This document shows positions 8,509 to 59,299 of a stretch of DNA of 59,299 nucleotides, in pieces. Under the pieces are notes generated by a model. The model had not been told where the DNA came from and made no database searches. It was given only the letters and a program-made list of their open reading frames with translations. How positions within the stretch are numbered: position 1 is the first letter of the stretch; each line of letters begins with the position of its first letter. The DNA is taken from the NCBI GenBank assembly GCA_003344405.1, contig NOWV01000153.1, positions 124,001 to 183,299 of the forward strand, written 5' to 3'. The DNA is from Trichoplax sp. H2. Taxonomy: Eukaryota. The position numbers were made by a program, and so were the translations under genes.

Positions 8509-9672
8509 ATGGGGACAAATATGACTAAAATCGATAGTGAGAACCATGTCAAAGGTAAAAATGTTGTAACTGGCAATGATATCAAATCTTACTTAAATTA
8601 TCAAGAACGCCAAGCAATTATTGATTCCTGGAATGCAATCTCTACAGAAAAGCAAAAATATGGAACTATCTTATTCTTAAAGTAAGTACAATTGAAATCC
8701 TATCTTATTCCACGTCTTTGTTATCCAATTAGAATTTAATTTATAAGAGAGAAAATACAAATTCCTTGTAGATATCTTTAACCGTTTTTAATAAATTGAA
8801 TTTGATGATTGATGTTACAGTTTATAAAACTAATAAAATTTTGTAATGCCTTTTGTTGAGCATTCTATTAGTATTAATACGATACAATATTAGATTTAAT
8901 CCGCTTGAAAACTCTTCTTCTTTCCATAATAGTTAGATGTTACTTATACTAGGCCTTTTAATGAATCTTATTACTGCTATTAATAGTTATTATTACTTTA
9001 AAGCCATGACTCAATATTGCAAAAAGAGAGACAGATATTTTAGTAACTTATTTGAAAATTTTAATTATGATTTTACCGCTACCTGTACAAGTATTTTATG
9101 CGATATCTTATTATTTCCAACTTTTAAATTGTTCTTTATATCCTGTCATTTTTCCACGTCTAACATTATAATAATTAATTTTGGATTTAGACTATTTGAA
9201 TTAGAACCTAGAGTTAAAAGCCTCTTTACCATCTTCGATTTCAATGAACCGCTGGAAGATATTATACAATCGCCTCATTTCCGTAGCCATGCCATGCGAT
9301 TTATGCAATCCTTGGAAACTGGAGTTTTAATGGGCTTTGATAAAGAAAGTTGTGACTTTTTATTTAAGTCTCTAGGAAGTCGCCATCACTTTTACGATCT
9401 TAAAAGTGAATTTCTAGATGTAAGCTAGTTATCATCATTTTAATGAGCTAATTAATCCCGAAAGTTTTATTATCAAATTGCGGATCGAAATGATACGAAA
9501 AATTCAATTATTTTTATGACTTCGTCAGGTTATTCCCGAGTGTATCTTGCACACAATAAAGAAAGGTTGCGGTAATAACTGGAGTAACGAAACTGCTGAT
9601 GCATGGAAAATTGCAACTAAAGTTTTATGCGAGCTATTTCGGGAAGGACTAGAAACTAAGCCTAAGAAATAG
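8509..9672 (+). CDS. Globin (neuroglobin/globin X-like), 181 aa; coding exons 8509-8681, 9191-9419, 9529-9672
   Basis: GT-AG splicing gives one open frame: MGTNMTK...QAIIDSWNAI...GTILFLK/LFELEPRVKSLF (CD1 Phe)...FRSHAMRFMQSL (E7 His)...LGSRHHFY (F8 His)...EFLD/VIPECILHTIKKGCGNNWSNETADAWKIATKVL...PKK*. Introns are phase 2 (B12.2) and phase 0 (G7.0), the ancestral globin positions. Confidence 0.93.
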
Positions 9673-12298: not shown

Positions 12299-13417
12299 TT
12301 AGAATCGATAGCTTTCAGTTTCAGCAGCATTTGAGTTGGTTTCGACAAGACTTGAATTATTAGGTCCTAATTTAATGTGTGTTGTGCTAAAGCTGTTGTT
12401 TTGCCTAGTGTACTGTTGGACGCGTTTGCAGCAGCAAATTTTCTTGACCACACATTTAATGTCACGCTTAAAGACAACATATAATATTGGATTGATGGCT
12501 GAATTTCCCATTACGACCATTGCTGTGAAAGCGTTTATAACTAAAGGAGTTCTGCCTAACCAGCGATTCACTAGCATAACTATCGTGAAAGGCAGCCAGC
12601 ATAGAACAAATGCTCCAACGATGATAGCAGTTGCTTTAGCTGCTTTCGATTCTCGTTGTTCGCTATTACAACGAGATTTTTTCATGGATTTCCGACTACT
12701 GATGGAGCTTGCTCGGCTGTCTCGTCGTATTTTCTTAGCATGAGCAGCTGCAATGCTGAAGATGGTGCCGTAAATGTAAATAAATAAAAGAATGGGGATA
12801 AAACAAACAATACATAGTGCTACAGTCATGTAGATTTTATCATGCAACAAACCAGTGCCGTAAGCGAGTTTATCGCAAAATAATATCGGATTTGTGGTCC
12901 ATGTAAATTGTGTTGAAGCGCATATACCAGCAATTGTCCATGAAAGAATTTCTCCGATAACTGCTCGTTGTTTAGTCACTATTTGGCGATAGAAGTACGG
13001 ATTTGTGATGGCGAAAAATCGATCTAAACTCACGCAGCAAAGTGATAGACTGGATGCTGAAGGTAGAAAGGCTGATAGAAACCATTCAACGATACACCAG
13101 CGAGAATCCGTCAAGCGATGAACACTTGTAATAACAGCATAAATGGTAAATGGCATTACTAATGCTCCGACAAGAATATCGGCTGCGGCCACGTTGATGA
13201 TGAAAAAATTAGTAATAGTTCGTAACTGATGATGCTTGATAATGACGATGACAACAAATAAATTACCGAAAACGGAAACTACCATAACAGTGAAGAAGTA
13301 CAACAGTAAAATTAATTGCTCATATATGGTATAAATTTTGACATTGCCAGGGGTTGTAGGTAAAATAGAAGTGGAATTCACACTATCATTGCTGACTACT
13401 AGGCTTAGATTGTCCAT
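12299..13417 (-). CDS. Rhodopsin-family (class A) GPCR, aminergic/adenosine-receptor-like, single coding exon, 372 aa
   Basis: Seven hydrophobic segments with GN (TM1), AAAD (TM2), C3.25, SLDRF (TM3), W4.50, basic ICL3 ending RESKAAK, FVLCWLPF (TM6), NSAINPILY (TM7), C-terminal CCC and N-terminal N-glycosylation sequons. Confidence 0.95.
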   Translation of the reverse strand: MDNLSLVVSNDSVNSTSILPTTPGNVKIYTIYEQLILLLYFFTVMVVSVFGNLFVVIVIIKHHQLRTITNFFIINVAAADILVGALVMPFTIYAVITSVHRLTDSRWCIVEWFLSAFLPSASSLSLCCVSLDRFFAITNPYFYRQIVTKQRAVIGEILSWTIAGICASTQFTWTTNPILFCDKLAYGTGLLHDKIYMTVALCIVCFIPILLFIYIYGTIFSIAAAHAKKIRRDSRASSISSRKSMKKSRCNSEQRESKAAKATAIIVGAFVLCWLPFTIVMLVNRWLGRTPLVINAFTAMVVMGNSAINPILYVVFKRDIKCVVKKICCCKRVQQYTRQNNSFSTTHIKLGPNNSSLVETNSNAAETESYRF

Positions 13418-13581
13418 AGTGGGATAGGATGAAGTTTATTTGGATAAGATGAAAAATTTTCTATTTGCAGTTGATTGATTTCTAGTTCAATTGCGATCTT
13501 CAAGCAGTTGTTGAAATGATCAATTTGACTTAGTTTTAATTTACAAATTTAGATAATTTTCAGCGAAGGGAACTATCGAAT

Positions 13582-31600: not shown

Positions 31601-34600
31601 TATATGATGTAATACAGATTTTCTAGTAAATTCGTCTGTTTTTAATGTTAAACATTTGGCTTACGTTCACTCGCACTGATTAATTTAGTCTTTTTTCAAG
31701 AAATGCATGTATGATAATAGTAAAATGACTATCTGATGCTTCACTAAAATAAAATTAATCAACTTTAGTTCTAATATATAGTTTTGATAAATGAGATTGT
31801 AAATCTTTCATGTATGACTTATTAATATAACTGTAAGTAAGGCAAGCTGTTTCAATTAAGCATTTCTGTTTTATAATTTTCCGTAGTTATTCCACAACTG
31901 CAATATAATATTACATTCGTATAATTTCAAAGATTGACAATGTCAGTTTGAATGAAATTCTAATAATACATCATTCCAATTTAGTATGAATATAAAATAT
32001 ACCAGGTTCTACGCTTCAGATGTTAACCATAATTGCTGACTGTGATAACTTCAGTAAGAAAGCTGTTATTTTGGTCAAGGGTATACTGCAATCAATAATT
32101 CCTGAGTAAAGCTTGCCTCGAAGCTGTTGTTAATGTATATTTTTGACCAATTCTGATAGCATAACATAACTTTGTTTGTAATACTGAATCCTGGGTGTAA
32201 GACCTTAAAATTACATTATTGATTCAATCAATTATAAATCATTCCATCTCAAATTCCATACTTTATATTTGCGCGTAAAGAGACATGTATAAAAATTATC
32301 TATTAACTTAGTATTGTACCGTAAATTTAGTATCGAGGTTAAATTCTCATACAGTATTAGAATTAGTAGTACTCGTATACGCTATAGCAGAATAGGAAGC
32401 TCATATAGATGGATATGATTGTTTGCAAGTACTCTGGTAGGATAAGGTACTTTACTTTCCGTAGTTAAGGAAATGGGAGCATAGATGCATGTATTAGACA
32501 TTATGACAAAGCTACTACCGTTACTTAATCGATTATGCATTTGAGTATGTAAACGAGTAGATTGAGTAAATGGAGAATTCTTCTTATCGATAGCTTGTTA
32601 TAGATACAGTTACAGATCAGATTTCATTGTAGTAAAGCTTAATTCAGTTTTATACATGTAAATTCAGATAATCTGACTTATTGGGAACCATAAGAATTAA
32701 CTTTTCTATAATATGTTAGCAGGTTTGTCATATTTGATGTCAAGACTTAAATTGCCATCAGATCTAAAGACTGAATATACGAGGTAGTAATGATCCCAAT
32801 TATTTTTAATTAGCTATTTTATTGCGTTTTAACTTACATTAGCGACAAATTTTGTAACTCTTGCCATAGCGCGATTTAATGGTTTTAGTAAATCTTTCTA
32901 AGGATTAATAATAAAATCTAATATGAACTAATTTAATCGATCAGTAAATTAATTATTTTGATTTGCCCTAGCAGTGCTATTATCATTCAACTCCTAGATC
33001 TAAAGGTAACTTTGCCAAAATGCTTTAATTATGTTGCAAATGGTATTTTAAGTAATAGCTAATAGTACTTTATTGCTCATAGTAAGTCAAACAGTCTGAT
33101 CCGGCAAAATATTTGCGCTTTTAGACATTACGTTCATATCTCCTTAGTTATATTTATTCGGTATTTTACATTCAGGTAATCCAACATAATTTTAAGATTA
33201 CCGTGAAGCTACAGGCATTCCTCATCATTAACTGATTTTAAGTCGTCACGAGCAATATAATGATTCATTATTTCATGTATTTATGTGCATACATTCATTG
33301 AATCTAGTAATTAAAAATTGATCATACTAAGAGCTGTATTTAGAGAGAAAATTGCTATTTAGCATTTTAATTCAATACTTAATACTTCTATTTCAAGACG
33401 AACTACTGTAAGATAAGTTTCTCATTCGTCACTAAAATTATACCGAAATTTGCATAATTCAAAAGTAAGATTCCTAATTTTATGGCTGTGTATTAAAATG
33501 GTCTCACAATAGGCTTTTATTACAAAATTTTAAGAATAATAGAGCAATAATTAATTACTAAAAGAATCTAATCTAAAATCTAAAGTGCTTCGAGCTCAAA
33601 GCGAAATAAAATCTCTTCTCTCCATCAGCTCATCTCTGCAGGTTTCTTAAATACATTTCGCTAAATCCAATTATGACCACTAAATTAATCTACAATCAGA
33701 CTTAAGCCATCTAACGGTATACTTTTTTCTCCAATAAAAAAACATCATTATTTTCTACAATCTGTATCATTCTACTTAAGATATTATTACCCTTCCATTA
33801 ATGTCCAGCATCTTTCGGTGTTGGCCATCTTCTCAATTACAGTGTTTCTAATCACATTAATCTTATACCATAATTAGTCAACTGGCTGATAAAATTCATC
33901 AACAATTTCTAATATAGTAGCTATCAATCATCTAATATTAGCTTCACTATCGTATCTATTCTTAGTAATCTTACAGTATCAAATAAAGCCATTTACAATA
34001 TCAAATATAGCTATCCTTATGATCAAATATGGGATGCATCACTATAGGTTGATTGCTATATAACAATATACATTGACCGATCTCGCAATGTATGTATAGT
34101 AATATATGTGTTATGAACTCTTAAGAAACGCCGTTTCACTCTCTTAACATGCGCTGCTGTCGTAATGGTGGATCACGTACTGTAGACTTGTATTTATTTA
34201 CTTTACCCCGTTATTATGTTAAAGCTTTTGCAATTTGAAAGTGTGCAATGTAATGTGCGCTAGAGAGAGATAGAGCAGTTCTACCGATCCGCTGGCAAAA
34301 AAAAATAGCAAATTAACTTCATTTTCAAGGATAGAAGCGCGAGAGAGAACGTCGAACCAGATGATCAAGTCAGCAGTATATATGAATCAATCAAAAATGG
34401 ACCATCAACGCAGTGTTCCTAATCTTTATGCTTTCAAAGTGCTGAGTCGAACTCATTCAATTTCAGTCTATAACACATGTAACACTTTGATCTTATATAT
34501 ATATTCTAGGATCGAGGCCCTATAAGCCACCCTATCATAGACTCGATAGACTAAGGTTAAATACGAGTGCAGGAAGTAGAAAGTCTCATCACTCAATCGC

Positions 34601-34609
34601 TACAGTATT

Positions 34610-35980
34610 GTTTAAATTGGCTCTTTCTATGTCGGACAAGTCACTGCAAATTCGATTGTCAGTCCTTGGTCATAATTATCCCGATATTGCTCGATCATTT
34701 AGCCACATGGGAGCTTTCTATTATAACCAAGGCAAGTATGACTTACTATTTGTATGTATGATAAATCACTACAAATTCGATTGTTAGGCCTTGGTCACAA
34801 TCATCCCGATGTTGCTCTGTCATATAACCACTAGTCCGACATAGAAAGAGCAAATTTAAACTTGCTGTGAAGATATCCGATTTCCCCAATTTGATGATGA
34901 CTATCGGCAAGACGAGCATCATTTTCGTCTAACCATTAGTTTCATTTCCAACGATTCCTAACAGTCTTACAGTGCTCCGTTCCATTCCCCTTGGCATCTC
35001 TTAATCTCGCGTTGTCTGTGTAAAAACATTCCGCCATTCTTATTTCATCTTGTAGTTCAGTAGCCAAAGATTGTCCCTTTTCACTCCTTTCAATAGCTTT
35101 CATCAATTCATATTGTAAAGTATAAATGTCATAAATGCCAAGATCAATATCGCATCAAAGTTGATCAATATCCTCACTAGAATTATACAATACAACGATG
35201 CAATCTCATCTACAGCTTGTATATAACAAGATAGTTTCTTCGCCAACTTGAAGGCAATCTTGCATTTCTTGCCCTTTTTGTACAGTGATTGTATATGGGT
35301 ATGATTAGGATGTAAACTCTTAGAACAGACAGATTCATTATCAGCCGTCTTCATTCACTAAATTAAATGACATCAACTTCGAGTTAGCCCCTGATTCCAG
35401 CGACAAGTGAGGAGAAATAAAGTTCATATCAAGCTTCGTTACAACGTTCAATTAGTAAGCACTGTTATTGTCATCAGATTGATATTATCTCTATACATAA
35501 ATGATGTTGCAATGATTGTGCTTAAGTGCGAGTCGTATTTCAACACAAAACTAGAAATAATTCGACTATCAACAATTTTCGACAATTAATAAAACTACGT
35601 CTATAATCTCATCTATCAATTCTGATTGGAAGATTATCCTGTAATCATTCAATCAATCATTGTAGATGATAGCTGAAGATAACGCTACCAGTCAATTGTG
35701 TGCATCAATCAATGCCAAATTGAATCCAACTAGTAGATTACTTTACGCGTTTATTAACAAAATGCACTCCAGCTTACGCAAAGATTATAATAATAATTAT
35801 AATTACAGTAACCATCAAACGACAATCTTTTTGTTCTAATAGACAACAGTAAATGAATGCTAACCATATCAATGATGTTTTAAACAAGACTGATTGCTTA
35901 CAGCATAGTTTTAGATGACGTCGTTTAGATGTCTTCAATTTATAACGTGATGATTATCAAAATAGAATGGGTCACTTACC
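34610..35980 (-). pseudogene. Truncated pseudogene of the TPR-Roco family (N-terminal/TPR part only), with an internally inverted TPR fragment at 34641-34830
   Basis: 35354-34835 (-) resembles the N-terminus at 45874 (ADNESV...HTHIQSLYKKG...DARLADSHHQIG) but has stops and frameshifts. 34611-34830 reads DKSLQIRLSVLGHNYPDIARS on the + strand. The upstream intron and 5' exon donor (35980) match 45880-46560. Confidence 0.85.
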
Positions 35981-36029
35981 AATGGATGTTTTAAAAATAG
36001 GCTAATAAGAATATGACGATTTTGCTGAG

Positions 36030-38780: not shown

Positions 38781-39153
38781 TAAGCTTGTATTGTATTCCC
38801 TGTTTTTGAAGGGTTATCTGTTAGGATAGTTAAATTAATTTAGAAGAGTAATTTAAGAAGGTAAAGGCATTCTATAATAATTTTGTCTTGGCGCATATTT
38901 TATAAGTTCAATTTAAATGTACGATAAATTATAAGCTGTATTGAAGATGGCTTTGAGAATAGGCTGTTTGCATTCTAGAAATTTTGTTCGTTGTTCTTTG
39001 ACAGAATGATGTCATTCCTACCAATAGTTTGCAAAGCCCGCTGCAATCGGCTAATGCTAACATTGGGATGTGCCTTTTGGTACCAGTAATTGAGCAATTC
39101 CATTGCCTGGTTAAAGACTTGGTCGCGATTTTGTTCCATTATAACCTTAACAC
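38781..39153 (-). repeat. Gap-flanking duplicate (probable second haplotype) of the death-domain exon 3' part and 3' UTR, lacking the LTR insertion
   Basis: Matches 39174-39332 plus 39670-39883 with three substitutions; adjacent to the gap at 39154-39173; stop codon at 38975-38977. Confidence 0.85.
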
Positions 39154-39332
39154 NNNNNNNNNNNNNNNNNNNNTAAGCTTGTATTGTATTCCCTGTTTTT
39201 GAAGGGTTATCTGTTAGGATAGTTAAATTAATTTAGAAGAGTAATTTAAGAAGGTAAAGGCATTCTATAATAATTTTGTCTTGGCGCATATTTTATAAGT
39301 TCAATTTAAATGTACGATAAATTATAAGCTGT

Positions 39333-39664
39333 TGTCACACACCACTAGTGACAAAGTAGTCTACACACGCCAATCCTTGCGGAGAACGCCACTTACTAAT
39401 TTAAAGAGGCGAGATTAGCTATATCACCAAATAATTCAGTTCCAACAACCGAATACTATGGTATAATTATAGCGTCACAGATGATGTAGACGAGATAGTC
39501 AGAGATTTACTATCATTTATTACTGAAGGAATCTTGGCACCCAAGATTATAGTCTTCACAATTAAATATCAATTGAAAACTAGTTGACTATCTAACCGAC
39601 TAACGAACTAAAAAGGAATCTTCAGGCATCAGCCTTTTATAGTCTCGTCAGAAACTCCTTAACA
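39333..39664 (+). mobile_element. 332-bp solo-LTR-like element with 5-bp target-site duplication (orientation arbitrary)
   Basis: Termini TGTCAC...TTAACA. GCTGT is duplicated at 39328-39332 and 39665-39669. The empty site with a single GCTGT is visible at 38935-38939. Confidence 0.85.
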
Positions 39665-39704
39665 GCTGTATTGAAGATGGCTTTGAGGATAGGCTGTTTG
39701 CATT

Positions 39705-39967
39705 CTAGAAATTTTGTTCTTTGTTCTTTGACAGAATGATGTCATTCCTACCAATAGTTTGCAAAGCCCGCTGCAATCGGCTAATGCTAACATTGGGATG
39801 TGCCTTTTGGTACCAGTAATTGAGCAATTCCATTGCCTGGTTAAAGACATGGTCGCGATTTTGTTCCATTATAACCTTAACACAAATCGTTGGATCTAGG
39901 ATGGCCGCTAACTGTGGCCAGTCTGTGCCAATAGAGCTTGCAATAGGGTGAAAATACTTCCTAGGAT
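39705..39967 (-). CDS. Terminal exon encoding a death domain (paralog 1)
   Basis: DPRKYFHPIASSIGTDWPQLAAILD...NQAMELLNYWYQKAHPNVSISRLQRALQTIGRNDII follows the ankyrin/RIP/FADD-type death-domain pattern; phase-1 acceptor at 39968-39969. Confidence 0.88.
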
Positions 39968-42900
39968 CTATATAGTACAAGTAGAAACTTTACTATGAAG
40001 TACTATACGAGTATGTTGTAACAATTTCAATTGCAAATAAATTACTTGATTTTACATGATATAAAGTACAATATTTACATAATGAGCTCTTATGTCGCAA
40101 TTAGAGTTGAATAATCATCTGGTTCGCTATAATTATTTATGTAATGGTAATAATGGCATTAGCGACAGCACAGGTGGAACTGTACTTCTATTGTAAGACT
40201 AATAGAAATAAATGGCTCTAATTCGAATTTGAATAACTCTGTAAACGAACTACTTACTGGACAAACAATGTACAAATAAATTAAGATTGAATATTTTTAA
40301 TTCATAAATCATTATTTATTATGTTCAGTAGCTTACTAGTAGCAAGAATATTTTAATGACGATCTTAAAAATTCGTCAGTGATATCATTATCTAGTAAAA
40401 CTGTATGCGATCATATCATCAGTGGCAAACGTAGCTTAAAGAATTACATCCATTGACGAGGTAAGGTATTCCTATGTTAGAATTTACACGAAGTAATTGC
40501 TCTTAATCATATTTGAATCGATCTACAATTGGATTACTAAATGCAATTGAGAATGATTGATAGATATCAATTCAATAGAGGTTTACCTTCATCTTTGGTA
40601 TCTGTCCATCGGTCTAAAGTAGTGGAATAAAAATAGTAATAATCGATTAATAGTTCTATCGTTTAAGTAATCAATGCAGTAGATTAGTGCCCATAATTTT
40701 TGATAATAATCAACTATTGTTTACGCTATTACAAAATCACCTTATATTAAATAGTAAAATAGCTATGATACAGTACATTTATGTCTCTTTGCTTGCTCTA
40801 TCGTATGAATTTAGTTTATGATATCATAAAAAGTGATAATATAAGAATGAAGCTGCTGTTTATTCTCACATGCTTACCTATCCAGAATTTTTCATTATAA
40901 ATCACCCAATCGTTTAAAGATTGACTGGCAAATTCCATCTTACAATGCTTACATCGAATCCAATATTGATCTCCTTCCTTGTATTCTTCAGTTATACTTG
41001 TTGGTGTATTACATTCACTACATTTGACGAAATATCGACAATCAGCCCCTTTAAACTTAACCATCCTATCATTGACAGTGGAGATGAGTTTATTCTTGAC
41101 AATTTCGTGTGGCCGTTTGACAAATACAGAATTTTTAACTTTATCGATAATCGATTGACTCCTCTCGGGCTCATTTATTTTCTGATAGGAATATTGTAAA
41201 CCGATATGAGATTCCTCTTTCTTGACTACAAGATAGTGATTGTCATTTGCTAAATAATATTTGGCACATTGATAGTATAATTCTACGTCCGTATTATTCC
41301 ATTCCTTTAAACATGAAGATAACAAGCAATAATAAATTCCATCTGGAAGATATGCAATATCTGTATGCTCGTATCCAATGTAGAGCCAATCTGATTGATG
41401 ATATTTTGGTAAATCAAATGGCTTAACATCATATCGTAACAAGTATGGAACAAAGTATTGACATTCTTCGCCGTTGTCGTTCTTCTCATTTGTAATTGAA
41501 CATAGAATATCATAAGTATGCATGAGTGCCAATATAGTTTGCTTACTATTGTCATCTAAATTAAATTTATAAATAGCATGATCAATGTATGATCTTGATA
41601 ATTTTCCTGTTTGGCTGGCTATATCATAGTCACGTTTTATCTGTGCACTTCCTTGTACAAAATCTTGTAATTGAATAATAGAACGAAATATACTTAATAA
41701 CCAATCGACATTAGTTATAATAATTCCGTCGTCGCCTACTTTATCACAGTAGATGACTTCTCCTAAATCGTGTAGATACATTAGCATAGCGATTAATTCA
41801 TCATGGTTTTCATATAATCCGTATTGTTGAGACAAGGTTACTATTTGTTGCATTGTCATAATATTATGCACTTGAGAATGTCTAATTTGATTCATAATAG
41901 AAGATGCGGGTTGATTGTTAGTAGGGAGCGATTTATTTAATATTGTAGCCATGATATACCATCGAATAGGTATAGGATTCGTAATAAATGGCAGTGATTG
42001 TACAAATGCCTTAATGATACCATGTAAACGAAGACAACATTGTTGACGCAGCTTCTGTGTCGACGGAGTACTATCAAGAGGATTGCAATCAAAAATAATA
42101 CCAGAAGAATAGATATGACTGGCATAAGAAGGCATGTGAGACGTCAATGTAGACACAAATTGATTAAATCGAGTACGTCCATCTTCTTCATTGGTAATAC
42201 AATCGCCATGAGAAGCTACTAAAATAATAATAGGTAATGAATGCTGTGAAGGTGGTAAATCCTGTCCGTCTTCACTTTTAATGCTCACATCGATGGTACT
42301 TTGGCTTGTATGGCCAGCTATGATTGATGTAAGCCATTCTTGCATAGCTTGTAAATACGTCGTTTTGAGTGATTGGTTGTTCCTTGTTGTTACCTTGTCG
42401 TTAATGTCTTGCTTAATATTAAATACTAAAATATAAATACTATTGACGGAGATAAAGGGATAATGAGTAAGATGATAGACGGCATGACCTGCGAAATCCC
42501 ATATTTTAACATACTGATTTTTATCGTCTTTTTCTGTATTTTGATTTTCCATGGACGAACAGTAATATTGATCTAAGTCTCGTTTAGACTGTGGTTCTAT
42601 TGCAATCTCTGTCCTTGCTATCGCTGCATCTTGCGTAACGATATTCGTTGCAGAAGAATCGACACTGTGTTGTTGCCCATTTGACACAGATGGATTATTG
42701 GTTATAATGGGTTGATCTATTGGATCCATGTCGGTTACTTGCTGAATGATGTTATCTCGACTATCGATACTTGTTAGGGCTATGTCTTGTATGACTGTCG
42801 TGACTGTATCGTCTAGTATTTCAGTCCAATCACAACCCTCTAAGTTCATAATATTATAATATTCAGTCTCTACCATAATATCCGAATTCTCAGCCACTTG

Positions 42901-45874
42901 TGTTGGAGATGGACTGTTGAGTGGTTGCTTGGTAAATATTTTTCGAACAGAAGTTTTGCCCACATTGCGAGGGCCAATAAACATGCCTCGTATTAAACGA
43001 TTAAAGCAATGGCCATGTTTTAATGCTTTGCTATATGCATTGTAATATTTCTTTTCTTGCAAAGCTGTAGAACAACAAAATGCAGAATAGGGTTACGGTT
43101 ATCCATCGCTCTCTCGTCTACTACTGTATTAAAACTCTACTTACGTTTCTCTTGTACGTGTTGGTTGTTATGGCTGCCGTCGATCGTATTTGCTGGCGCT
43201 ATATCGTTGTTGGTTTGATTCAGTTGAAACCGTTCAAGGATACTTTTGATCCAATTTCTCGCTATTGATGTCGGCGATTTCTGCTGCCGGAGAGCGATTT
43301 CGATATTCTTTTTGGTCATTGTAACTAGGCCATCATTTCCGCTTAAGGTTGCGATATACAGTGACTTGTTAAAGTTATCCAGAGCCTGATCGATCTTGCC
43401 TTGGTCATGATAGACACATCCTATGTTGTGATATGAGTTGGCAACATCAGGATGATTGTGACCAAGGACTGACAATCGAATTTGCAGTGACTTGTTATGC
43501 ATCTCCACAGCCTGATCGATCTTGCCTTGGTCATGATAGACACATCCTATGTTGTTATATGACCACGCAACATGGGGATGATTGTGACCAAGGACTGACA
43601 ATCGAATTTGCAGTGACTTGTTATGCATATCCATAGCCTGATCGTACTTGCGTTGGTCATGATAGACACATCCTATGCTGTTATATGACCACGCAACATC
43701 AGGATGATTGTGACCAAGGACTGACAATCCAATTTGCAGTGACTTGTTATGCATATCCATAGCCTGATCGTACTTGCCTTGGTTATGATAGACAATTCCT
43801 ATGTTGTGATATGACCACGCAACATTGGGATGATTGTGACCAAGGACTGACAATCCAATTTGCAGTGACTTGTTAAACATCTCCACAGCCTGATCGATCT
43901 TGCCTTGGCTTCTATAGACAACTCCTATGTTATTGTATGACCACGCAACATCAGGATGATTGTGACCAAGGACTGCCAATCGAATTTGCAGTGACTTGTT
44001 ATGCATATCCACAGCCTGATCGTACTTGCACAAGTCCCAGTAGAGGCGCCCAATTTGATGATAACTATCGGCAAGACGAGCANNNNNNNNNNNNNNNNNN
44101 NNATACTTTTGATCCAATTTCTCGCTATTGATGTCGGCGATTTCTGCTGCCGGAGAGCGATTTCGATATTCTTTTTGGTCCATTTAACTAGGCGATCATT
44201 TCCGCTTAAGGTTGCGATATACAGTGACTTCTTAAAGTTATCCAGAGCCTGATCGATCTTGCCTTGGTGACTATAGACAACTCCTATGTTGTTATATGAG
44301 TTGGCAACATCAGGGTGATTGTGACCAAGGACTGACAATCGAATTTGCAGTGACTTGTCATGCATCTCCATAGCCTGATCGATCTTGGCTTGGTCAAGAT
44401 AGACACATCCTATGCTGTGATATGACCACGCAACATGGGGGTGATTGTGACCAAAAACTGCCAATCGAATTTGCAGTGACTTGTTATGCATCTCCACAGC
44501 CTGATCGTACTTGCGTTGGTCATGATAGACACATCCTATGCTGTTATATGACCGCGCAACATCAGGATGATTGTGACCAAGGACTGCCAATCGAATTTGC
44601 AGTGACTTGTTATGCATGTCCATAGCCTGATCGTACTTGCGTTGGTCATGATAGACATATCCTATGCTGTTATATGACCGCGCAACATCAGGATGATTGT
44701 GACCAAGGACTGACAATCGAATTTGCAGTGACTTGTTATGCATCTCCACAGCCTGATCGTACTTGCCTTGGTCATGATAGACACATCCTATGCTGTGATA
44801 TGACCACGCAACATCAGGATGATTGTGACCATCGACTGACAATCGAATTTGCAGTGACTTGTCATGCATATCCATAGCCTGATCGTACTTGCCTTGGTGA
44901 TGATAGACAAGTCCTATGTTGTTATATGACAGCGCAACATCGGGATGATTGTGACCAAGGACTGACAATCCAATTTGCAGTGACTTGTCATACATCTCCA
45001 TAGCTTGATCGTACTTGCGTTGGTCAAGATAGATAACTCCTATGCTGTTATATGACCGCGCAACATCAGGATGATTGTGACCAAGGACTGACAATCGAAT
45101 TTGCAGTGACTTGTCATGCATATCCATAGCCTGATCGTACTTGCCTTGGCTTCTATAGACAGCTCCTATGTTGTTATATGACAGCGCAACATCGGGATGA
45201 TTGTGACCAAGGACTGACAATCCAATTTGCAGTGACTTGTGCAACATCTCCATAGCCTGATCGTACTTGCCTTGGTCATGATAGACACATCCTATGCTGT
45301 GATATGACTGCGCAACATGGGGATGATTGTGACCAAGGACTGACAATCGAATTTGCAGTGACTTGTCATGCATATCCATAGCCTGATCGTACTGGCACAA
45401 GTTCCAGTAGAGTCGCCCAATTTGATGATAACTATCGGCAAGACGAGTATCCTTTTCGTCTAACCATTTTAATTTCATTTCCAACGATTTCTTACCGTCT
45501 TCCAATGCTCCGTTGAAATCTTCTTGGCATCTCTTAATCTCGCTTTTTCTTTGTAAACATTGAGCCATGCTCACTTCATCTTGCAGTTTAGTAGCCACAG
45601 TTTGTCCCTTTTCACTCCAATCAACAGCTTCCTTGAATTGATATTGTAAAGTGTAAATGTCACAAAGACCAAGATAAATATCGCATGCAAGTCGATCAAT
45701 ATCCACACTAGGATTCGACAACGAAGCAATCGCATCGACAGCTTGTGTATAACAAGATAGTCCGTCCACCAACTGGAAGGCAGTCTTGCATGAGTTGCCC
45801 TTGTCGTACAGTGATTGTATACGGGTATGGTGAGGAAGCCCACTCGTGGAAGAGACAGATTCATCATCAGCCAT
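39705..45874 (-). CDS. Roco protein: TPR array - Roc GTPase - COR - death domain; exons 45874-43145 (contains gap/duplicated array), 43064-40878, 40613-40587, 39967-39705
   Basis: All three introns are GT-AG, phase 1 and keep the frame: GAGAAAC|gtaagt...ctacag|CTTTGCAA; TGGATAG|gtaagc...ctttag|ACCGATGG...GAAG|gtaaac...atatag|ATCCTAGG. Roc motifs are GPRNVGKTS, WDFAGH and SHGD. The C-terminal death fold reads IASSIGTDWPQLAAIL...QAMELLNYW...LQRALQTIGRNDI. Confidence 0.85.
40587..40613 (-). CDS. 27-nt symmetric (phase 1-1) linker microexon, DRWTDTKDE
   Basis: Flanked by ctactttag| and |gtaaac; a same-length exon with its own splice sites sits at the equivalent place in the paralog (57492-57518). 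Confidence 0.7.
40878..43064 (-). CDS. Roc-COR exon (~729 codons)
   Basis: ORF 40816..43062: P-loop MFIGPRNVGKTS, G3 KIWDFAGH, YILVFN, IILVASHGD, COR-type PIPIRW and LMYLHDLGEVIY, YFVPYLL, terminal CSEC...CKHC. Confidence 0.92.
43330..44080 (-). repeat. TPR tandem array version B: 6 units of 126 bp/42 aa (kinesin-light-chain/nephrocystin-3-type TPR)
   Basis: RLADSYHQIG unit followed by five xVAxSYxxIGxVYxxQ units in ORF 43137..44183. Confidence 0.9.
44190..45445 (-). repeat. TPR tandem array version A: 10 units of 126 bp/42 aa
   Basis: RLADSYHQIG unit followed by nine xVAxSYxxIGxxYxxQ...KSLQIxLxVxGHNHP-type units in ORF 43925..45886. Confidence 0.92.
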
Positions 45875-46504
45875 CTTTTCCTGCACTCAATTCAATAGTA
45901 TGTGAGTTAAAGACTTGAACGACAGGTTAGAGACAAATAAGATTTAAATTAAGCTTCGTTACAACCATGAATGACTAATCATCGGATCGATATTATCTCT
46001 GCGTATTCATGAGGTTATGTCGGAATGGTTGTACTTGCGTGCTAGTCGTAGTTCAACAGAACAACATTAATTATTCCATTATACACAATTTTCAAGTATC
46101 AATAAATCAACTTCTACAATGTCGTCTATCAATTCCGCATGGAAGATTATCCGAAAATCATTCAATCAATCTCTGTCAATGATTACTGAAGACAACGCTA
46201 TCGGACAATCGTGTGCTGACATCAATCAATACCAAACTAAATCCAAGGAGTAGACTAATTTACGTGTACATTAATAAAATGCACTCCAGCTTACAAATAC
46301 ATTATACTCATAATCATAATAACCGTCAAACAACAATCGTTTTATCCTGATAGACAACAGCAAATGAATGCTAGCCACATCAATGATAGTGCAAAATAAG
46401 AAAGGATGCTTGTAATACAGTTTCGTTGGAGTCGTTTACCTATCTATAATTTCTATTTTTACTTGAAATACAATGTATAATGATGGATACCTAAACGGAA
46501 TAGG

Positions 46505-46600
46505 TCACTTACCAATGGATGTTTTAAAAATCGGCTAATAGAACAACTTGATGATTTTGCTGTGATGTAGATTTAATCCTATCAATCCGACTGCGCACTG
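46505..46600 (-). promoter_or_regulatory. Probable non-coding first exon and donor of the Roco gene
   Basis: aaaacatccattg|gtaagtgac (donor at 46512) is conserved in the pseudogene copy at 35979; acceptor gtgcag|gaaaagATG at 45881. Confidence 0.6.
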
Positions 46601-46904: not shown

Positions 46905-48805
46905 GACCCGATACAAATTGATTAAATGGAGTTTTTCAATCTTCTTGTTTTGTAATACAATCGCTATAAGAAGCTACTAGAAATAATAATAAGTAATGAA
47001 TACTGTTCATCTTCGCTATTAAAGTTTACATTTATTGTACTTTGCCTTCTATGGCTACCTATGGTCGGCGTAAGCCATTCTTGCATAGCTTGTAAATAAG
47101 TCATGTTCAGTGATTCGTTCTGTCTTGTTCATACCTTGTCATTAATGTCTTGATTCATATTAAAGACTACAATATAAATACTATTAGCAGAGATCAATGG
47201 AGAATGATTAACATGATAGATGGCATGACCACCGAAATTCCATATTTTAACATATTGATTATTATTACGTTTATTGGTTCTTTGATCGATGATAGACGAA
47301 CAGTAATATTGAGTTAAGGCGAGTTTAGACGCTGATTTGATTTCAATCTCTTTCAATGGTATGGCTACTTCTTTTGTAGCATTACCAACTATAGGAGATT
47401 GCACATTGTCTTTTTTGTAAATTTGGCAATGGTAGGTTATCTGTTAAAACGGGTCGATGTATTGGATGCACACGGGTAATTTACTGATTGATATTCTCTT
47501 GACTATCGATGCTTGTTTTGACTTTATCGTCTACTACCTCAGTCCAGTCACAACTCTTTCAATTATGAATACCATACTATTCAGTCTCCACCATGAAATC
47601 AGAATTCTCAACCACTTGTGTAGGAGATTGATTAATGATTAATACTTGTTGAATAAATACTTTTCTAACAGAAGATTTACCCACATTGGGAGGGCCAATA
47701 AACATGCCTCATATTAAATTATGATAGCAATGACCTTGATTTAATGCCTTGGTATACGCATAGTCATATTCCTTTTCTTGTAAATCTGTAGGATAAAAAG
47801 TACAGAATATTGTTGTTATGATATAGGACTGTATTTATGGTAGTCTTGAATACTAGTGCATTAAAATGCTGTTGTCGATCGACGAAGCTATATCTTGGAC
47901 GTGTTGATTAACATCATGATTATCTTTCCCTCTTTTCGCCATTGACGTTGACTGATTATACTGTGATCGTTGCACCAGGGGAGTAATGGCCATATTGTCT
48001 TTCGTTTTTTTTCCAACTTCGGGATGATTTACGCCTAAGGCTGGTAGTATAATACTGAGTGACTTATTATACATATCCAGAGCCTCATGGTGCCTTCCTT
48101 GTCTAGAATAGATACTCCAATGTTGTTCTATAAGAGCCCAATATCATGATGACTGTGACCAAGAAGTAATAATCGAATCTTGAGTGGCTTGTTATATGTA
48201 GAAAGAGCCAAATTATACTCGCCTCGTTTCTCATAGACAACTCCAATATTGTTATATAACATCGGGATGATTGTGACCAAGAACTAATAATCCAACTTTA
48301 AGGGATTTGTCATACTTAGAAAGCGCCTTTGTAGACTTGCCCTGATGACTGTAGATGCGCCCAATCTGCGGATAACTATCAGCAAGGCGTGGATCATTTT
48401 TAATGGAAACATTTTAATTTCAAGTTCAGCTATTTATAACAGCCTTCCAGTGTTTCTTTCCAATCCCATTACCATCCCTTAATCTTACTTTGTCTGTCTA
48501 ACTATTCAGCCATTTTCACTTTATCTTGCAGTTAAGTAGGCAGAGATGTCCCTTTTCTTTCCATTCTTTGCTTTCTTCCGTTCTTTTTGTAAAATATAAA
48601 TATCGCACATATCAAGACATATATCGCATCGAAGTCGATTAATCTTGACACAAGGATTGCAAAACACTTGAATCTCATCTAGAGCTTGCGTAGAATAAGA
48701 TAATCCTTGGGTTCAATTGTAGGTAGTCTTGTACTTTTCACCATTTTCATACAATGATTGTATATGAGGAGGAATTATAGAGTGGATGGATTTATTATCG
48801 GCCAT
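46905..48805 (-). pseudogene. Decayed TPR-Roc paralog, truncated within Roc (no COR or death exon)
   Basis: ATG at 48805 in the same aagATGGC context, PRLADSYPQIG, degenerate TPRs (LGHNHPDV, LGVNHPEV), homologous acceptor at 47786, MFIGPPNVGKSS, KIWNFGGH, YLQAMQEWLT; multiple stops and frameshifts. Confidence 0.88.
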
Positions 48806-49399: not shown

Positions 49400-52300
49400 T
49401 CAAACTTACCAATTTAATTTTTTCATTACTGGCTAATGATAGTTTGATGTTATTTTGGGGCCGAAATGTAGGTATAATTCTATCAATTGCACTGTATGCT
49501 GCTTATTCTAACGATGAGCAAAGTCAGCAAATAGAACCAAATAGAATTGAAGATGGCATACGAGTAAACTTCTACCCACTAAAAATCCTATTACATTAGG
49601 CAAAAAATGTTCCCTACAACGTAGCCAGTTCAAAGGTAATCGATTTTCAACCTTCAATATGCGCGTACAAATATAATGGTAGTGAAATGATATTCTGTCA
49701 TGTGCATGTTGTTGGATATGTCCAAATTCATGATTCTTCAAGGTGCCATTTTCAGCCCAAGTGTCCTATGAGATACTATTGAAACTATGCAGCAATGGCT
49801 GTGCCAGGCTTGTACGGGTTCAGAGCAAATGTCATTTCTTCGCTTGCCTTCAAGGCTTCGTTGTGGTTAAAGTTGGGCAATTGGTTATTTTGTTGACCGT
49901 AGTTTGTTATTTCAGGGCGCAGCAGGCACGACTGTTGACCGATGGCCCATAATCTACAGCATTAACTTTACTTCATCATCCAGTTCAAAAACTTTATATA
50001 CTGTACTCTACTCGATACAAGTAGCAAGAACTACTAAATTTGAAGAGAGAGGACATATCATAATGTCCAACAAAATGGTCAATATGATACTGTTAAAGGC
50101 GTAGTCAATATTTGCCATTGAAATCATCCTTTATTAAAAGCATTTTATTGAGTAACAACACCGCACTCAATAGTGTTAGGTAGGGCATACCAAGTAACCA
50201 AATATAATCATCACTTCTTTGGATTGTGTAGCCATTTTTTGATCGTCATTTTAGACAACTTTATAGACGAGCAGATTTCCAATTGTAAAGTATTTGCTGA
50301 CACAGCTCTAAACTAGCTATCCAATCAAGTCACCATCAGTCAGTCATGTTGGTCATTAACGAATTTACAAGAGAACTGATTTTACGTTGCATAAGAATGC
50401 ATTTCACAACTTTCACCAAGGTACATTTTCTACATGCAGTGAGGAATCCTTTCAACTGGTATATGGCCATAGCCATTTTTAACGATTTACTATTAGATGG
50501 TCATTAACATTGAATTCACTGCTGTTTATATACCAAAGACACAAAGTTTGCAATCTACTTTGAAAAACGAATGGATAAAATAGTCATAGAGTTATCGGTG
50601 ATGGTGGCATGATTTAGTACGGCGATTTAGTCATCAGACTCCTTCCACATCGATGATGATTGCACCAACACGACGACTGCAAAATATTCAAGTCGAGGCT
50701 GATATCAGAAAGGATTAACACTAGTTTTATAGCCAAGAAATGCGTGGAGGAGTTTGCAGTACGCTGCAGGACTCGCTTTCACTCACCATTACCTCTAAAC
50801 ATGCTGAAAATTACGGAATCGACTACAGAATTGGAACGGTCTCCATGCTGGCATATGCCATTCAATACCTTACTGGATAAAACTTCTTAAACTGTTTCTA
50901 CATCAACTTGAGGCCAATGCAATAAGCAACATTAAAATGGTTGATCGATTGAACCAAGTCTAATTGCATTGGCTTGCCATTGCACGCGTAGACCATAGCG
51001 TGGACAACTGGGCATGCAAAAATGGAGACGAGGAGGCATTAATAAGTACACTGCCATTAAGGGATTCAATATATTATATACTGCGCTATAAGCGATTCAA
51101 ACTAGGATTTAGGGCATTATGCTAACTCTGCTGNNNNNNNNNNNNNNNNNNNNGCAGGACTCGCTTTCACTCACCATTACCTCTAAACATGCTGAAAATT
51201 ACGGAATCGACTACAGAATTGGAACGGTCTCCATGCTGGCATATGCCATTCAATACCTTACTGGATAAAACTTCTTAAACTGTTTCTACATCAACTTGAG
51301 GCCAATTGCGTTGGCTTGCCATTGCACGCGTAGACCATAGCGTGGACAACTGGGCATGCAAAAATGGAGACGAGGAGGCATTAATAAGTACACTGCCATT
51401 AAGGGATTCAATATATTATATACTGCGCTATAAGCGATTCAAACTAGGATTTAGGGCATTATGCTAACTCTGCTGTCTGCTTACTCGATATTTTACAAGA
51501 GTCTAATTTGATCACAAAGATTAAGTTAGAATATGGACTACTACATGAATTTATCATCTATAGATGACTGTGCAATGGTGAATTTGGACACACTACTATA
51601 CTGTAGTAGCAAGATACACTAATTCTGCATTAAAAACTGCACTGAGTAATCATGCACATCCATAGCTGCAAATTGCAATTCCTGTCTGTTAGGATTACGA
51701 TTGATTTGTTGGCATTCCATGGGCTAAAACTTGATTCTATCCAGTTTTTCTTCTACTGTAGTGAGCTACAAATACTTTCTGCCAGTCTTGGCTAACCTTG
51801 TCTTGATCGAAGCGATAGAATGCGATGAAATTGGGCAGAAAACCTGACTGAATGATCAAATACACCAGTTGCAATAGATGCCAATACCATGTCCATACTG
51901 TAATTTTCCAAGCTATGGCTACACAAACTAAATCGCTACATTGTTGGTTATAAAGTTGGATCAATCTTTTAACCATAGAGGTATTTTTTCACTTGTATCG
52001 TTTTAATTGATTTTAACGTTGGCTCATGGACGAAATTGTTTCCAACGCCTTTTCTACTCATGCAAGTTCTCAATCTATCGTAACTTGCAGTATATTGGCT
52101 GTGAAACTGGCGAAAAATAGCGACTTCTGTGGCTGTTGATACTATGGCGGGACCTACTAATGTAAGAACTGTGTAGAAAGTATGAGACTTGATCATTGCA
52201 GATCTACAAATACTCCTATTGCAAAAAAAGCGGTAAAGCTAAGCCAATTTACCTCACTTACATTACTATTACTTGCCTAGCGATTGTGCCTTCCACAGTC

Positions 52301-56658: not shown

Positions 56659-59299
56659 TCATTCGGTCATTTTTTGTTCGACTTCGTCAGCTAAAGCATT
56701 TATTTCCATCTTACGTAAAGCTTCAACCACTGCAGAGATTTTAGCATTCATCCCAGCTTTATCTTTCCACGATTTTAGAATATTGTGCACTTTATCGTAA
56801 CGTCCTTCATTCTGGCTTGATTTAATTTCATTAATCTTTGTGTCCGTTAACTTTAATAACACTCCAAAACGAACTATATGGGTTCCATTAAGTTTTGCTG
56901 CTATTAAATCGAAGCATGCTCTCTCTATTTTTATGTAAAAGCAAAGGAAAAATTCATGAAACAAAATTGGCAATATTAGCATCGTTTCAAGTCATCAGTA
57001 ATGTATCTGATCTAGAACACAGGCCTAAGAATGATATTAAGCAATTTTCCTTCACAATAACTATAAATTTATTCCCATGATCTTAACATGCAATCCACTG
57101 TTAATATTAAATGATATTATTGATTCTCAGTCACCATATTTTGCTGATTCAATTTCTTAATAGTTATGAGTACTTATTAAAGCTTGCTGGACGAGCTCTT
57201 TTAAAATTAAATTAAATCGGAATGGTAATTTATCAATGACCGTTTACTATATTGAGTGATTTTGGTAGTTAATATACCATATTGTAATTACAATCCCAAA
57301 ATGTTCATTATGCAATATAATAAGCTAGCAAAATTTTATGCGCTCACATAATCAGCGACAAAAATATTATAACTATTTAAGGCAGGATCTGTTGTAATAT
57401 TTGCTCTAATTCGTACTTATATCAATCTATAAATTAATTGCTATATGCATTTTTGAAATGACTGGTAGATATCAATTCAGTCGAGGCTCACCTTTATCTT
57501 CTGCATATATCTTTCTTTCTAAAGAAATGAGGTGAAAATAGGAATAATCAATTAGTAGCCCTATCATAACTTTTTTAAAACAGATGATAGAGTTGCAGGC
57601 ATGCAAATGAAATGTATGATTCTCTAAAGAGTTTACGAAGATAGTTTTCTCCCTTTATCTTTCTAGGTGCTTTTACAAGCAGGAAATGCTATCTATGGTA
57701 ATTTCTATACGTTGCATAAAACGACGAAACTAATTGGCTATTAAACAATTCAATATTAATGACTTATCATGCACTAACGTTAAAAAACAAAATACTATAG
57801 GGAACAGCGATAAATAAAATCCAGCCGTTTCTATTTACTACACAAATGAAATGCAGTAGATGAAGTACTCATTTTGAATTATTACAATCCATAATACATT
57901 TTCAGTAATAAGAAATATACTAAAATCAGAAAATATTATTGCAGTTAAATAGTAAAATAGCTATGATACAGTACATTTATGCCTCTTTGCTTGCTCTAGC
58001 GTATGGCTTCAGTTTATTATATCATGAAAAGTGATAATATAAGAATGAAGCTGCTGTTTATTCTCACATGCTTACCTATCCAGAAATTTTCATTATAAAT
58101 CATCCAATCGTTCAAAGATTGACTGGCAAATTCCATCTTACAATGCTTACATTGAATCCAATTTTGATCTCCTTCCTTGTATTCTTCGGTTATACTTGTT
58201 GGTGTATTACATTCACTACATTTGACGAAATATCGACAAGCAGCCCCTTTAAACTTGACCATCCTTTCATTGACAGTGGAGATGAGTTTGTTCTTGACAA
58301 TTTCGTGTGGCCGTTTGACAAATATAGAATTTGTAACTTTATCGATAATCGATTGACTCCTCTTGGTCTCATTTATTTTCTGATAGCAATATTGTAAACC
58401 GATATGAGATTCCTCTTTCTTAACTACAAGGTAATGATTGTCATTTGCTAAATAATATTTGGCACATTGATAGTATAATTCTACGTCCGTATTATTCCAT
58501 TCCTTTAAACAAGAAGATAACAAGCAATAATAAATTCCATCTGGAAGATATGCAATATCTGTACGCTCGTATCCGATGTAGAGCCAATCTGATTGATGAT
58601 AGTTTGGTAAATCAAATGGCTTAACATCATCTCGTAACAAGTATGGAACAAAGTATTGACATTCTTCTCCGTTGTCGTTCTTCTCATTTGTAATTGAACA
58701 TAGAATATCATAAGCATCCATGAGTGCCAATATAGTTTGCTTACTATTGTCGTCTAAATTAAATTTATAAATAGCATGATCAATGTAGGATCTTGATAAT
58801 TTTCCTGTTTTGCTGGCTATCTCATAGTCGCGTTGTATCTGTGCACCTCCTTGTACAAAATCTTGTAATTGAATAATAGAACGAAATATATTTAATAACC
58901 AATTGACATTAGTTATAATAATTCCGTCGTCGCCTACTTTATCACAGTAGATGACTTCTCCTAAATCGTGTAGATACATTAGCATAGCGATTAATTCATC
59001 ATGGTTTTCATATAATCCGTATTGTTGAGACAAGGTTACTATTTGTTGCATTGTCATAATATTATGCACTTGAGAATGTCTAATTTGATTGATAATAGAA
59101 GATGCGGGTTGATTGTTACTGTTAGTAGGGAGCGATTTATTTAATATTCTAGCCATGATATACCATCGAATAGGTATAGGATTCGTAATAAATGGCAGCG
59201 ATTGTACAAATGCCTTAATGATACCATGTAAACGAAGACAACATTGTCGACGCTGCTGCAGTGTCGACGGAGTACTATCAAGAGGATTGCAATCAAAAA
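56659..59299 (-). CDS. Second Roco paralog, 3' part (5' end beyond window): Roc end/COR exon >59299-58076, microexon 57518-57492, death-domain exon 56924-56659
   Basis: COR region is ~93% identical by eye to paralog 1, with the same TGGATAG|gtaagc donor. Phase-1 microexon ERKIYAEDK. Terminal exon ERACFDLIAAKL...RFGVLLKLTDTKINEIK...VHNILKSWKDKAGMNAKISAVVEALRKMEINALADEVE has a death-domain pattern. Confidence 0.87.

Follow-up and report, generated by a model that had tools for sequence, protein, structure and literature searches.

A spliced TPR-Roc-COR-death gene in a tandem cluster of Trichoplax sp. H2: a kinase-less Roco protein with a candidate NLR-like sensor-switch-effector layout

We analysed a 59,299-nt stretch of the genome of the placozoan Trichoplax sp. 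H2 (assembly GCA_003344405.1, contig NOWV01000153.1, positions 124,001 to 183,299; hereafter the window), in which a gene on the minus strand between positions 39705 and 45874 combines a tetratricopeptide repeat (TPR) array, the Roc-COR module of Roco GTPases and a death domain (DD). The gene at this locus is transcribed and spliced, and belongs to a set of Roco proteins without a kinase that has expanded in placozoans. Its parts follow one another as an N-terminal helical region, an array of 42-residue TPR units of the kinesin light chain (KLC) type, Roc, COR-A/COR-B, a four-cysteine ribbon, a linker exon and a C-terminal death domain. The way in which the gene and its relatives change points to a role in recognition or conflict (sensing of microbes, symbionts or non-self) over a housekeeping role, because replacements are biased towards the contact positions of the TPR units, the number of units varies, death exons are swapped and tandem copies are born and lost. 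An inferred NLR-like function, with sensor, switch and effector in one chain, is the best-supported mechanism, and we give it slightly less than an even chance. The locus had been singled out from its letters alone as encoding a single protein of roughly 1,450 aa, a candidate NLR-analogous receptor (the original prediction). This kind of gene is not new, its family having been catalogued (Civiero et al. 2014, PMC4104024) and annotated before; the present analysis adds an evolutionary signature and a corrected gene model.

In the AT-rich window (GC about 0.28-0.43), the long open frames of the gene lie on the minus strand at 45886-43925, 44183-43137, 43092-40816 and 39989-39705. Read in the direction of transcription, the contiguous part of the gene begins within its TPR exon (exon 1, copy B, 43145-44082), which restarts in TPR unit 1 and holds six units, a cap and a linker before a phase-1 donor (GT at 43144-43143). 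Intron 1 (43065-43144, 80 nt) is followed by exon 2 (40878-43064, 728 full codons), which encodes Roc, COR-A, COR-B and a four-cysteine, zinc-ribbon-like tail; intron 2 (40614-40877, 264 nt) by a mini-exon of 27 nt in phase 1-1 (40587-40613), which links COR to the death domain; and intron 3 (39968-40586, 619 nt) by the death-domain exon (39705-39967, stop TAG at 39707-39705), which encodes an ankyrin-like domain that we call type 1 (Pfam Death, E 1.8e-10). All three introns are GT-AG and in phase 1, as had been predicted, with GTAAGT after 43145 and AG before 43064, GTAAGC after 40878 and AG before 40613, and GTAAAC after 40587 and AG before 39967; the introns split the codons CCT (Pro), GAC (Asp) and GAT (Asp). 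After splicing, 44081 to 39705 gives an uninterrupted reading frame of 1,137 codons whose only stop is the terminal one. The expectation that each module is essentially its own exon is borne out, with the mini-exon as an addition.

Transcript data place splice joints at the predicted coordinates. Public sequencing runs containing part of 39650-43250 (20 of 23 listed) include two recorded as RNA, and we examined four runs, accepting contigs from 95% identity, a level at which they could derive from the nearest paralogs. One contig of X14, an RNA library, carries both the 39967/40587 and the 40613/40878 joints, with zero depth inside introns 2 and 3. The 43064/43145 joint is present in X9, and X14 has the same 80-nt skip one base over. 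Joints thus occur in two of the four runs; X1 and X3 have none and cover the introns, which makes them uninformative on splicing, as they are probably DNA or unspliced. Each joint is carried by one contig, with sides of 27-30 nt that lie below the 31-nt guideline, the mini-exon itself being only 27 nt long. Independent support for the splicing comes from two annotated H2 proteins, P0004 and P0162, which have the same residues across the COR, mini-exon and death-domain junctions, and the mini-exon is conserved in P0001, P0004, P0007, P0162 and a neighbouring gene of the cluster (gene D, below). Two details of the transcript region deserve mention. The codon split at junction 1 encodes Pro in this gene and Ala in P0001, P0003, P0004 and P0162, and the last base of the exon is C where G is usual. 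One contig of X9 joins 40337 to the death-domain exon at 39967 (GT-AG, 369 nt skipped) and then "goes back" 863 nt; the segment 40337-40521, which is rich in stop codons, may represent a cryptic exon within intron 3 or a repeated unit of intron plus Death exon.

The 5' half of the gene is interrupted by a scaffold gap, and here the original prediction needs correcting. Five runs of 20 N occur in the window, two of them within or adjoining the gene, at 44083-44102 and 39154-39173. The first lies inside the TPR exon, between two different TPR arrays. Upstream of it, exon 1 of copy A (44103-45874, minus strand) starts with an ATG at 45874 and encodes an N-terminal helical region of about 140 aa with a weak TPR_12 match, ten TPR units and the start of the post-array tail, and ends at the gap; its N-terminus agrees with the annotated starts of P0001, P0003 and P0162. 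The sequence before the gap is already in the post-array tail, the sequence after it begins again at unit 1, and the two arrays are 92.7% identical in nucleotides when compared in register over 790 nt. Because of this order and this identity, we conclude that two different copies were abutted by scaffolding. One continuous array of 16 units is ruled out by the tail that precedes the gap and the unit 1 that comes after it. The gap therefore joins either two tandem genes, whose missing portions (3' in one, 5' in the other) it hides, or two divergent haplotypes; plain allelism is disfavoured by the 7.3% nucleotide divergence, and a hypervariable locus would keep it possible. A single protein of about 1,450 aa with a ten-unit array is thus not established, the contiguous coding sequence being limited to the 1,137 codons from 44081 to 39705. 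Given a paralog of 1,477 aa (P0162), such a product is possible at this locus. The predicted variation in repeat number is plain from the ten and six units of the two copies, and extends to the paralogs. With the exception of the N-terminal half that crosses the gap, we regard gene structure and family assignment as secure, with very little doubt.

The switch module is carried by exon 2. Pfam detects Roc (E 1.4e-10; 41.9 bits, cutoff 27) and, at exon-2 residues 389-542, COR-A (E 1.5e-10; 41.6 bits, cutoff 35.3). Pfam, AlphaFold2 and fold matches together place the Roc G domain at 42088-43011 (minus strand; residues ~18-325), and matches to 3dpu_A, 3dpt_A and 4wnr place COR-A and COR-B at 41053-42066 (minus strand; about residues 333-545 and about 546-670). 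The G domain has the nucleotide-binding motifs G1 (GxxxxGKT, G30-T37), G3 (DxxG, D189-G192) and G4 (SHxD, S284-D287). For conservation and modelling we used an alignment of 41 of 161 homologous sequences, comprising the best-scoring, mostly long matches plus P0001, P0015 and P0020; all three motifs are conserved among the close relatives, with D287 conserved in at least 90% of these 41 sequences. The AlphaFold2 model of exon 2 built from this alignment has a mean pLDDT of 80.1 and a pTM of 0.83. A Foldseek search with the model returned 35 matches at E <= 0.001, which are LRRK1, LRRK2, C. tepidum Roco and M. barkeri Roco2: the top match was LRRK1 (8e05, E 3.1e-14), the C. tepidum RocCOR tandem 3dpu_A had E 4.2e-12 and the COR-only structure 3dpt_A E 3.1e-6 (TMt 0.57 for both), and M. 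barkeri Roco2 4wnr had TMt 0.73. A sequence search with exon 2 against solved structures reached Roco proteins solely through their switch II region (lowest E 2e-4), and a profile search was dominated by TPR columns. The predicted domain reading, a TPR array with Roc-COR and a death domain, is confirmed by Pfam and, for Roc-COR, by Foldseek. By its Roc G domain followed by COR-A/COR-B, as recognised in sequence and model, the protein falls under the definition of a Roco protein, and GTPase activity and dimerisation are predicted. A complex prediction with two copies of residues 540-728 (COR-B plus cysteine module), run with no alignment and with an uncertain fold, scored 0.00, a value that carries no weight for or against dimerisation.

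COR-B is followed by a module that had not been on the predicted list of domains, a CxxC...CxxC beta-ribbon at 40927-41037 (minus strand; strands in residues 676-712). Its cysteines C681, C684, C704 and C707 are each conserved in at least 90% of the 41 sequences. It matches no Pfam family, and it is absent from the passages of the Roco literature consulted for comparison; the corresponding region of a paralog gives a weak IBR_1 match (E 0.0052).

Other domains that might be expected beside a Roc-COR module or in an NLR were sought as well. Pfam found no protein kinase at E <= 0.01 in the four exon translations scanned, which comprise all but the 8-codon mini-exon. Neither NACHT nor NB-ARC was found, Pfam on the middle exon giving only Roc, Ras and COR-A, and the fold matches of exon 2 contain Roco proteins and small GTPases and no STAND proteins. 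Lacking both NACHT and NB-ARC, the protein does not belong to the NLRs; the presence of a TPR array and a death domain in one chain, joined by verified splicing, is a functional likeness to NLRs and not membership.

The candidate sensor is the TPR array. Pfam TPR_12 matches both long frames that contain it (E 1.5e-149 in the first, 4.1e-83 in the second), as does TPR_10 (PF13374), with ten stretches in copy A and six in copy B that each cover profile positions 1-42 of 42. The repeat period is 42 aa, the units match PF13374 and PF13424, and they are nearest to the TPRs of kinesin light chain. A single-sequence AlphaFold2 model of copy B (pLDDT 50.3) gave strands for helices and was discarded; helices and faces were assigned from the Pfam register and published TPR analysis. 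Among the 12 internal units of both arrays, mean identity is 90% in nucleotides and 80% in amino acids, and many conserved codons are identical in 12 of 12 units. Replacements concentrate at unit positions 1, 4, 11, 14, 15, 17, 26 and 27, and more mildly at 7, 8, 19, 23, 24 and 33. In the Pfam TPR_1 register unit position 3 is canonical position 1, so that 4, 7, 11, 14 and 15 correspond to canonical positions 2, 5, 9, 12 and 13, which Magliery & Regan (PMC1261162) describe as variable, concave and ligand-contacting. The same unit positions vary in P0001, P0003 and P0162. Over all 42 codons of the internal units pN/pS is 1.45, and arrays A and B compared in register have a dN of 0.086 and a dS of 0.048 (ratio 1.79; 50.5 replacement and 7.5 silent differences). 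The COR of this gene compared with that of the neighbouring gene D, in contrast, has a dN/dS of 0.47 (28 replacement and 14 silent differences), and the contrast between TPR and COR is significant by Fisher's test (p = 0.028).

The candidate effector has been exchanged, or appears so, among close relatives. The type-1 death domain of this gene (PF00531, 41.3 bits with a cutoff of 22.6, covering positions 1-79 of the 86 in the profile) has as its nearest solved relative the death domain of ankyrin-1 (E 8.6e-5) and is 95% identical to that of P0162. Gene D carries a different domain, which we call type 2 (Pfam Death, E 3.2e-11), nearest to the death domain of FADD (E 3.3e-6), and BLASTP finds no similarity between the two types of death exon (E 4.3). 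Despite these unrelated exons, the COR parts of the two genes are 92.6% identical in amino acids, and both types are preceded by a 27-nt mini-exon in phase 1-1. In a COR tree of 14 sequences, type-1 members (this gene and P0162) group with type-2 members (P0001; gene D with P0007) in a crown clade (100/99) that is nested among type-2 lineages (96/94, 81/84), with outgroups that are of type 1 or lack a death domain. This topology needs either at least two switches of effector or homogenisation of COR exons between older paralogs.

Relatives of the gene are numerous. Protein databases gave 828 cluster representatives at E <= 0.001, 50 of them at E <= 1e-30, and the named relatives of the middle exon all belong to Trichoplax sp. 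H2 or T. adhaerens. In the 41 close members, COR-A was found in 38, Roc in 27, TPR_12 in 16, Death in 10 and CARD in two. Two H2 paralogs annotated as full-length, P0162 (1,477 aa, "Nephrocystin-3") and P0004 (1,247 aa), have the same order and junction residues as the reported gene, and the order of N-terminal region, TPR, Roc-COR, mini linker and Death is shared by P0001 (like P0004, ~1,246 aa) and by TRIADDRAFT_61714 and _63591 of T. adhaerens. Among these paralogs there is no exact full-length match: RocCOR is 85-89% identical to P0162 and P0001, the best full-length values are 89% for RocCOR and 75% for TPR, the first junction codon differs as described, and against the six or ten units at the locus P0001, P0003 and P0162 have 3, 6 and 8, by a motif count that can miss units. 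P0001, P0004, P0005 and P0162 carry the public names "Kinesin light chain" or "Nephrocystin-3", which derive from TPR similarity only.

That kinase-less Roco expansions with TPR and death domains exist in placozoans had been stated correctly in the original prediction: Civiero et al. 2014 (PMC4104024) put the ROCO genes of T. adhaerens at 17 or more, with CARD, death, TPR, LRR and AAA domains. The placozoan immunity survey of Kamm et al. 2019 (PMC6321704) counts 42 NACHT/NB-ARC genes, all without LRRs, and does not mention "Roc". Among the papers that our literature search covered, none proposes that placozoan TPR-Roc-COR-Death proteins are immune receptors; the supplements to Kamm 2019 and the first figure of Civiero 2014 may list the genes and lay outside it.

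On this layout, the concave face of the TPR superhelix would bind a protein or peptide ligand, and binding would be coupled to the nucleotide state and self-association of Roc-COR. The resulting change would expose or cluster the death domain, which could then recruit death-fold adaptors and lead to cell-death or NF-kB-type outputs, so that the sensor-switch-effector logic of NLRs would run on a GTPase instead of a STAND ATPase. We favour this mechanism because of the variation on the ligand face, the in-phase effector swaps and the birth and loss of tandem copies. The earlier proposal of an NLR-analogous receptor is strengthened by the concave-face variation and by the swapping of death exons among close paralogs, and is still drawn from the layout of the protein.

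The likeness to NLR and STAND proteins with TPR sensors (placozoan and Hydra NB-ARC-TPR proteins, fungal NLRs) extends to several levels: a repeat sensor, an NTPase switch and a death-fold effector; 42-residue units of the TPR_10 class that are nearly identical to one another and vary on the concave face; and combinatorial effector domains with tandem gene turnover. The reported protein differs from them in having a Ras-like GTPase with COR in place of NACHT/NB-ARC and in its reversed order, which puts the sensor at the N-terminus and the effector at the C-terminus. A pattern like that of the TPR units here has been reported for fungal NLRs, whose TPR arrays have conserved repeats with positive selection on the concave side (PMC4986451). 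A possible immune use of Roc-COR itself also has parallels. GTPase-plus-COR proteins occur in bacterial conflict systems (PMC7159879), and brown-alga LRR-ROCO genes are candidate immune receptors that resemble the reported gene in joining Roc-COR to a repeat sensor that varies, in their clustered loci and in the immune role proposed for them (Zambounis 2012; PMC11378527). In the descriptions given there, each algal LRR is its own exon, and these are shuffled or alternatively spliced, whereas here the whole TPR array is one exon in which unit number varies; the algal proteins are also described without a death domain.

Several observations weigh against an NLR-like receptor. First, the G3 motif is followed by His, at the position where Ras has its catalytic Gln, and the G domain contains a disordered insert between G1 and G3 (pLDDT <50 at residues 51-61 and 101-156); because of this substitution and this long insert, switch behaviour is an assumption. 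Second, the selection statistics are weak on their own: the excess of dN over dS in the TPR array alone is not significant (binomial p = 0.13), the pN/pS of 3.5 for the hypervariable positions is circular since the set was chosen by its variability, and repeat units are not independent samples, with gene conversion able to distort the counts. Third, Dyrka et al. 2014 (PMC4986451) define repeats of "high internal conservation" by more than 85% amino acid identity over at least 100 aa; the self-identity of array A at shifts of 42-168 aa is 79-82%, the 80% mean of the internal units is likewise under the fungal value, and the sole stretch reaching 85%, in array B, is 42 aa long and too short for that definition. 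Fourth, the pattern of death domains could come from homogenisation of COR exons between old paralogs and not from exon swapping. Lastly, the locus is broken by scaffold gaps, and the exact protein sequence is not fixed.

Among the alternatives, the one that survives best is that the protein is a scaffold for regulated cell death or stress, of the DAPK1 type, which would respond to endogenous cues (development, damage, tissue turnover) through a TPR array that binds host partners and a death domain that feeds apoptosis. DAPK1 has the layout ANK-Roc-COR-DD. The reported protein shares with it the same Roc-COR fold family and the order of modules, with repeats before Roc-COR and the death domain after it, and its family's death domains resemble those of ankyrin and FADD. 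Apaf-1-like genes, moreover, are expanded in placozoans (Kamm 2019, PMC6321704). It lacks, however, the kinase, the ankyrin repeats, for which it has TPRs, and the calmodulin-binding segment of DAPK1, and has the four-cysteine module in addition. It is also multi-copy and fast-changing, with many paralogs, a pseudogene, a varying number of units and replacement-biased contact positions, whereas sensors of endogenous cues are usually few and conserved. We consider a DAPK1-type scaffold unlikely, while granting it an appreciable share of the probability.

A role in trafficking or the cytoskeleton, as an LRRK- or kinesin-light-chain-like Roco in which the TPR array is a cargo adaptor and the death domain an oligomerisation module only, seems improbable. 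In its favour are the TPR units closest to kinesin light chain, the automatic names of the paralogs, the place of LRRK1 and LRRK2 at the top of the structural matches and the speculation of Civiero et al. 2014 (PMC4104024) that the placozoan expansion serves chemotaxis and phagocytosis. Only the TPR part, however, matches KLC TPR and TPR_NPHP3, with neither the heptad-repeat kinesin-binding region of KLC nor the architecture of NPHP3 found, and the KLC-like matches belong to a generic 42-residue TPR class that is also present in fungal and bacterial NLR-type proteins. With LRRK1, LRRK2, MFHAS1 and the Roco proteins of C. tepidum and M. barkeri the protein shares the Roc-COR-A-COR-B fold (Foldseek E 3e-14 to 1e-8) and a G4 of [ST]HxD type; it differs from them in having TPR for LRR, no kinase or WD40 and a long disordered insert in the G domain, and in sequence it resembles them only around switch II (E no better than 2e-4). 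Nor would a cargo adaptor be expected to turn over rapidly and to swap its death or CARD effectors.

That the locus is an assembly chimera or a decaying copy without a function of its own, in which scaffolding brought together collapsed, near-identical paralogs and intact paralogs elsewhere are the source of the transcripts, is quite doubtful: it would account for the N gaps (44083-44102, 39154-39173) and the paralogous sequence flanking each, for the public contigs that leave the window at 39664 and take the flank of a second Death copy, for the many sites at which examined contigs differ from the window, for the Pro codon at a junction with Ala in four of four paralogs inspected and for the true pseudogene that adjoins the locus, and against it stand the 1,137 codons open from gap to stop across three introns with canonical splice sites, the constraint indicated by a COR dN/dS of 0.47, the match of the partial H2 protein P0002 to the COR part (100% identity in the best local alignment, 98% over all matched stretches, depending on the method of counting) and the contigs, 128 of 227 in X1, that reach 99% identity or more with the window.

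The NLR-like reading also draws on the surroundings of the gene, where tandem clustering and a pseudogene, both of them predicted, were confirmed. All cluster elements are on the minus strand, head to tail, except one inverted fragment. Directly after the gap at 39154-39173 lies a partial second type-1 Death exon (38978-39151, minus strand), 98.6% identical in nucleotides over 220 nt to the first; contigs of runs X1, X3 and X14 exit the window at 39664 and then match 38904-38933, the flank of this second copy, and the 490 nt at 39174-39663, before the gap, may be misplaced or from another paralog. Upstream, the pseudogene (46909-48805, minus strand) consists of an N-terminal region, TPR and Roc, interrupted by numerous stops and frameshifts, and lacks COR and Death. 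Gene D comprises a COR part that runs off the window (58076-59297), a 27-nt mini-exon in phase 1-1 (57492-57518) and a type-2, FADD-like Death exon (56659-56924, splice site read from the sequence), all on the minus strand. The H2 protein P0007 is 100% and 98.9% identical to the two exons at the right end of the window, the latter value being that of the COR part. Two further fragments complete the cluster: one of the N-terminal region and first TPR, with a frame break (34834-35345, minus strand), and the inverted TPR fragment, recognised by sequence similarity (34578-34852, plus strand). The roughly 690 nt 5' of the start codon (45875-46562) are 75.6% identical to 35346-36027, upstream of the former fragment, and because this flank is common to two copies the duplication unit includes the 5' flank and putative promoter.

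Elsewhere in the window, the N gap at 51134-51153 lies between direct repeats that are 87% identical (50766-51133 and 51154-51475), the same pattern of duplicated flanks as at the other gaps. A single-exon ORF of 378 aa (12299-13435, minus strand) encodes a rhodopsin-family G protein-coupled receptor (7tm_1, E 3.3e-46) and is unrelated to the Roco cluster. A globin gene may have one of its exons at 8937-9428 (plus strand), where an ORF weakly matches Globin (E 8.8e-5; 23.4 bits, cutoff 22). In 23 further ORFs of the window, Pfam gave one weak TPR_12 match and nothing else.

Roc-COR is the module that is mutated in LRRK2 and is its least understood part, and the family described here offers a natural system in which to study it as a signalling switch without a kinase. 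Placozoans are described as lacking LRR-type NLRs, RIG-I-like receptors and cGAS-STING (Kamm 2019, PMC6321704), and the TPR-Roc-COR-Death family, with its diversifying array, GTPase switch and interchangeable death-fold outputs, is a concrete candidate for the sensing of intracellular danger. We tentatively suggest, as a possibility well short of an even chance, that placozoans conduct intracellular non-self, symbiont or allorecognition through Roco GTPases, by means of TPR-Roc-COR-death/CARD receptors whose specificity would be set by gain and loss of TPR units and by concave replacements, and whose output would be set by in-phase swaps of death-fold exons. If true, this would mean that the logic of NLRs was invented independently, and would give a clue to what Roc-COR originally did.

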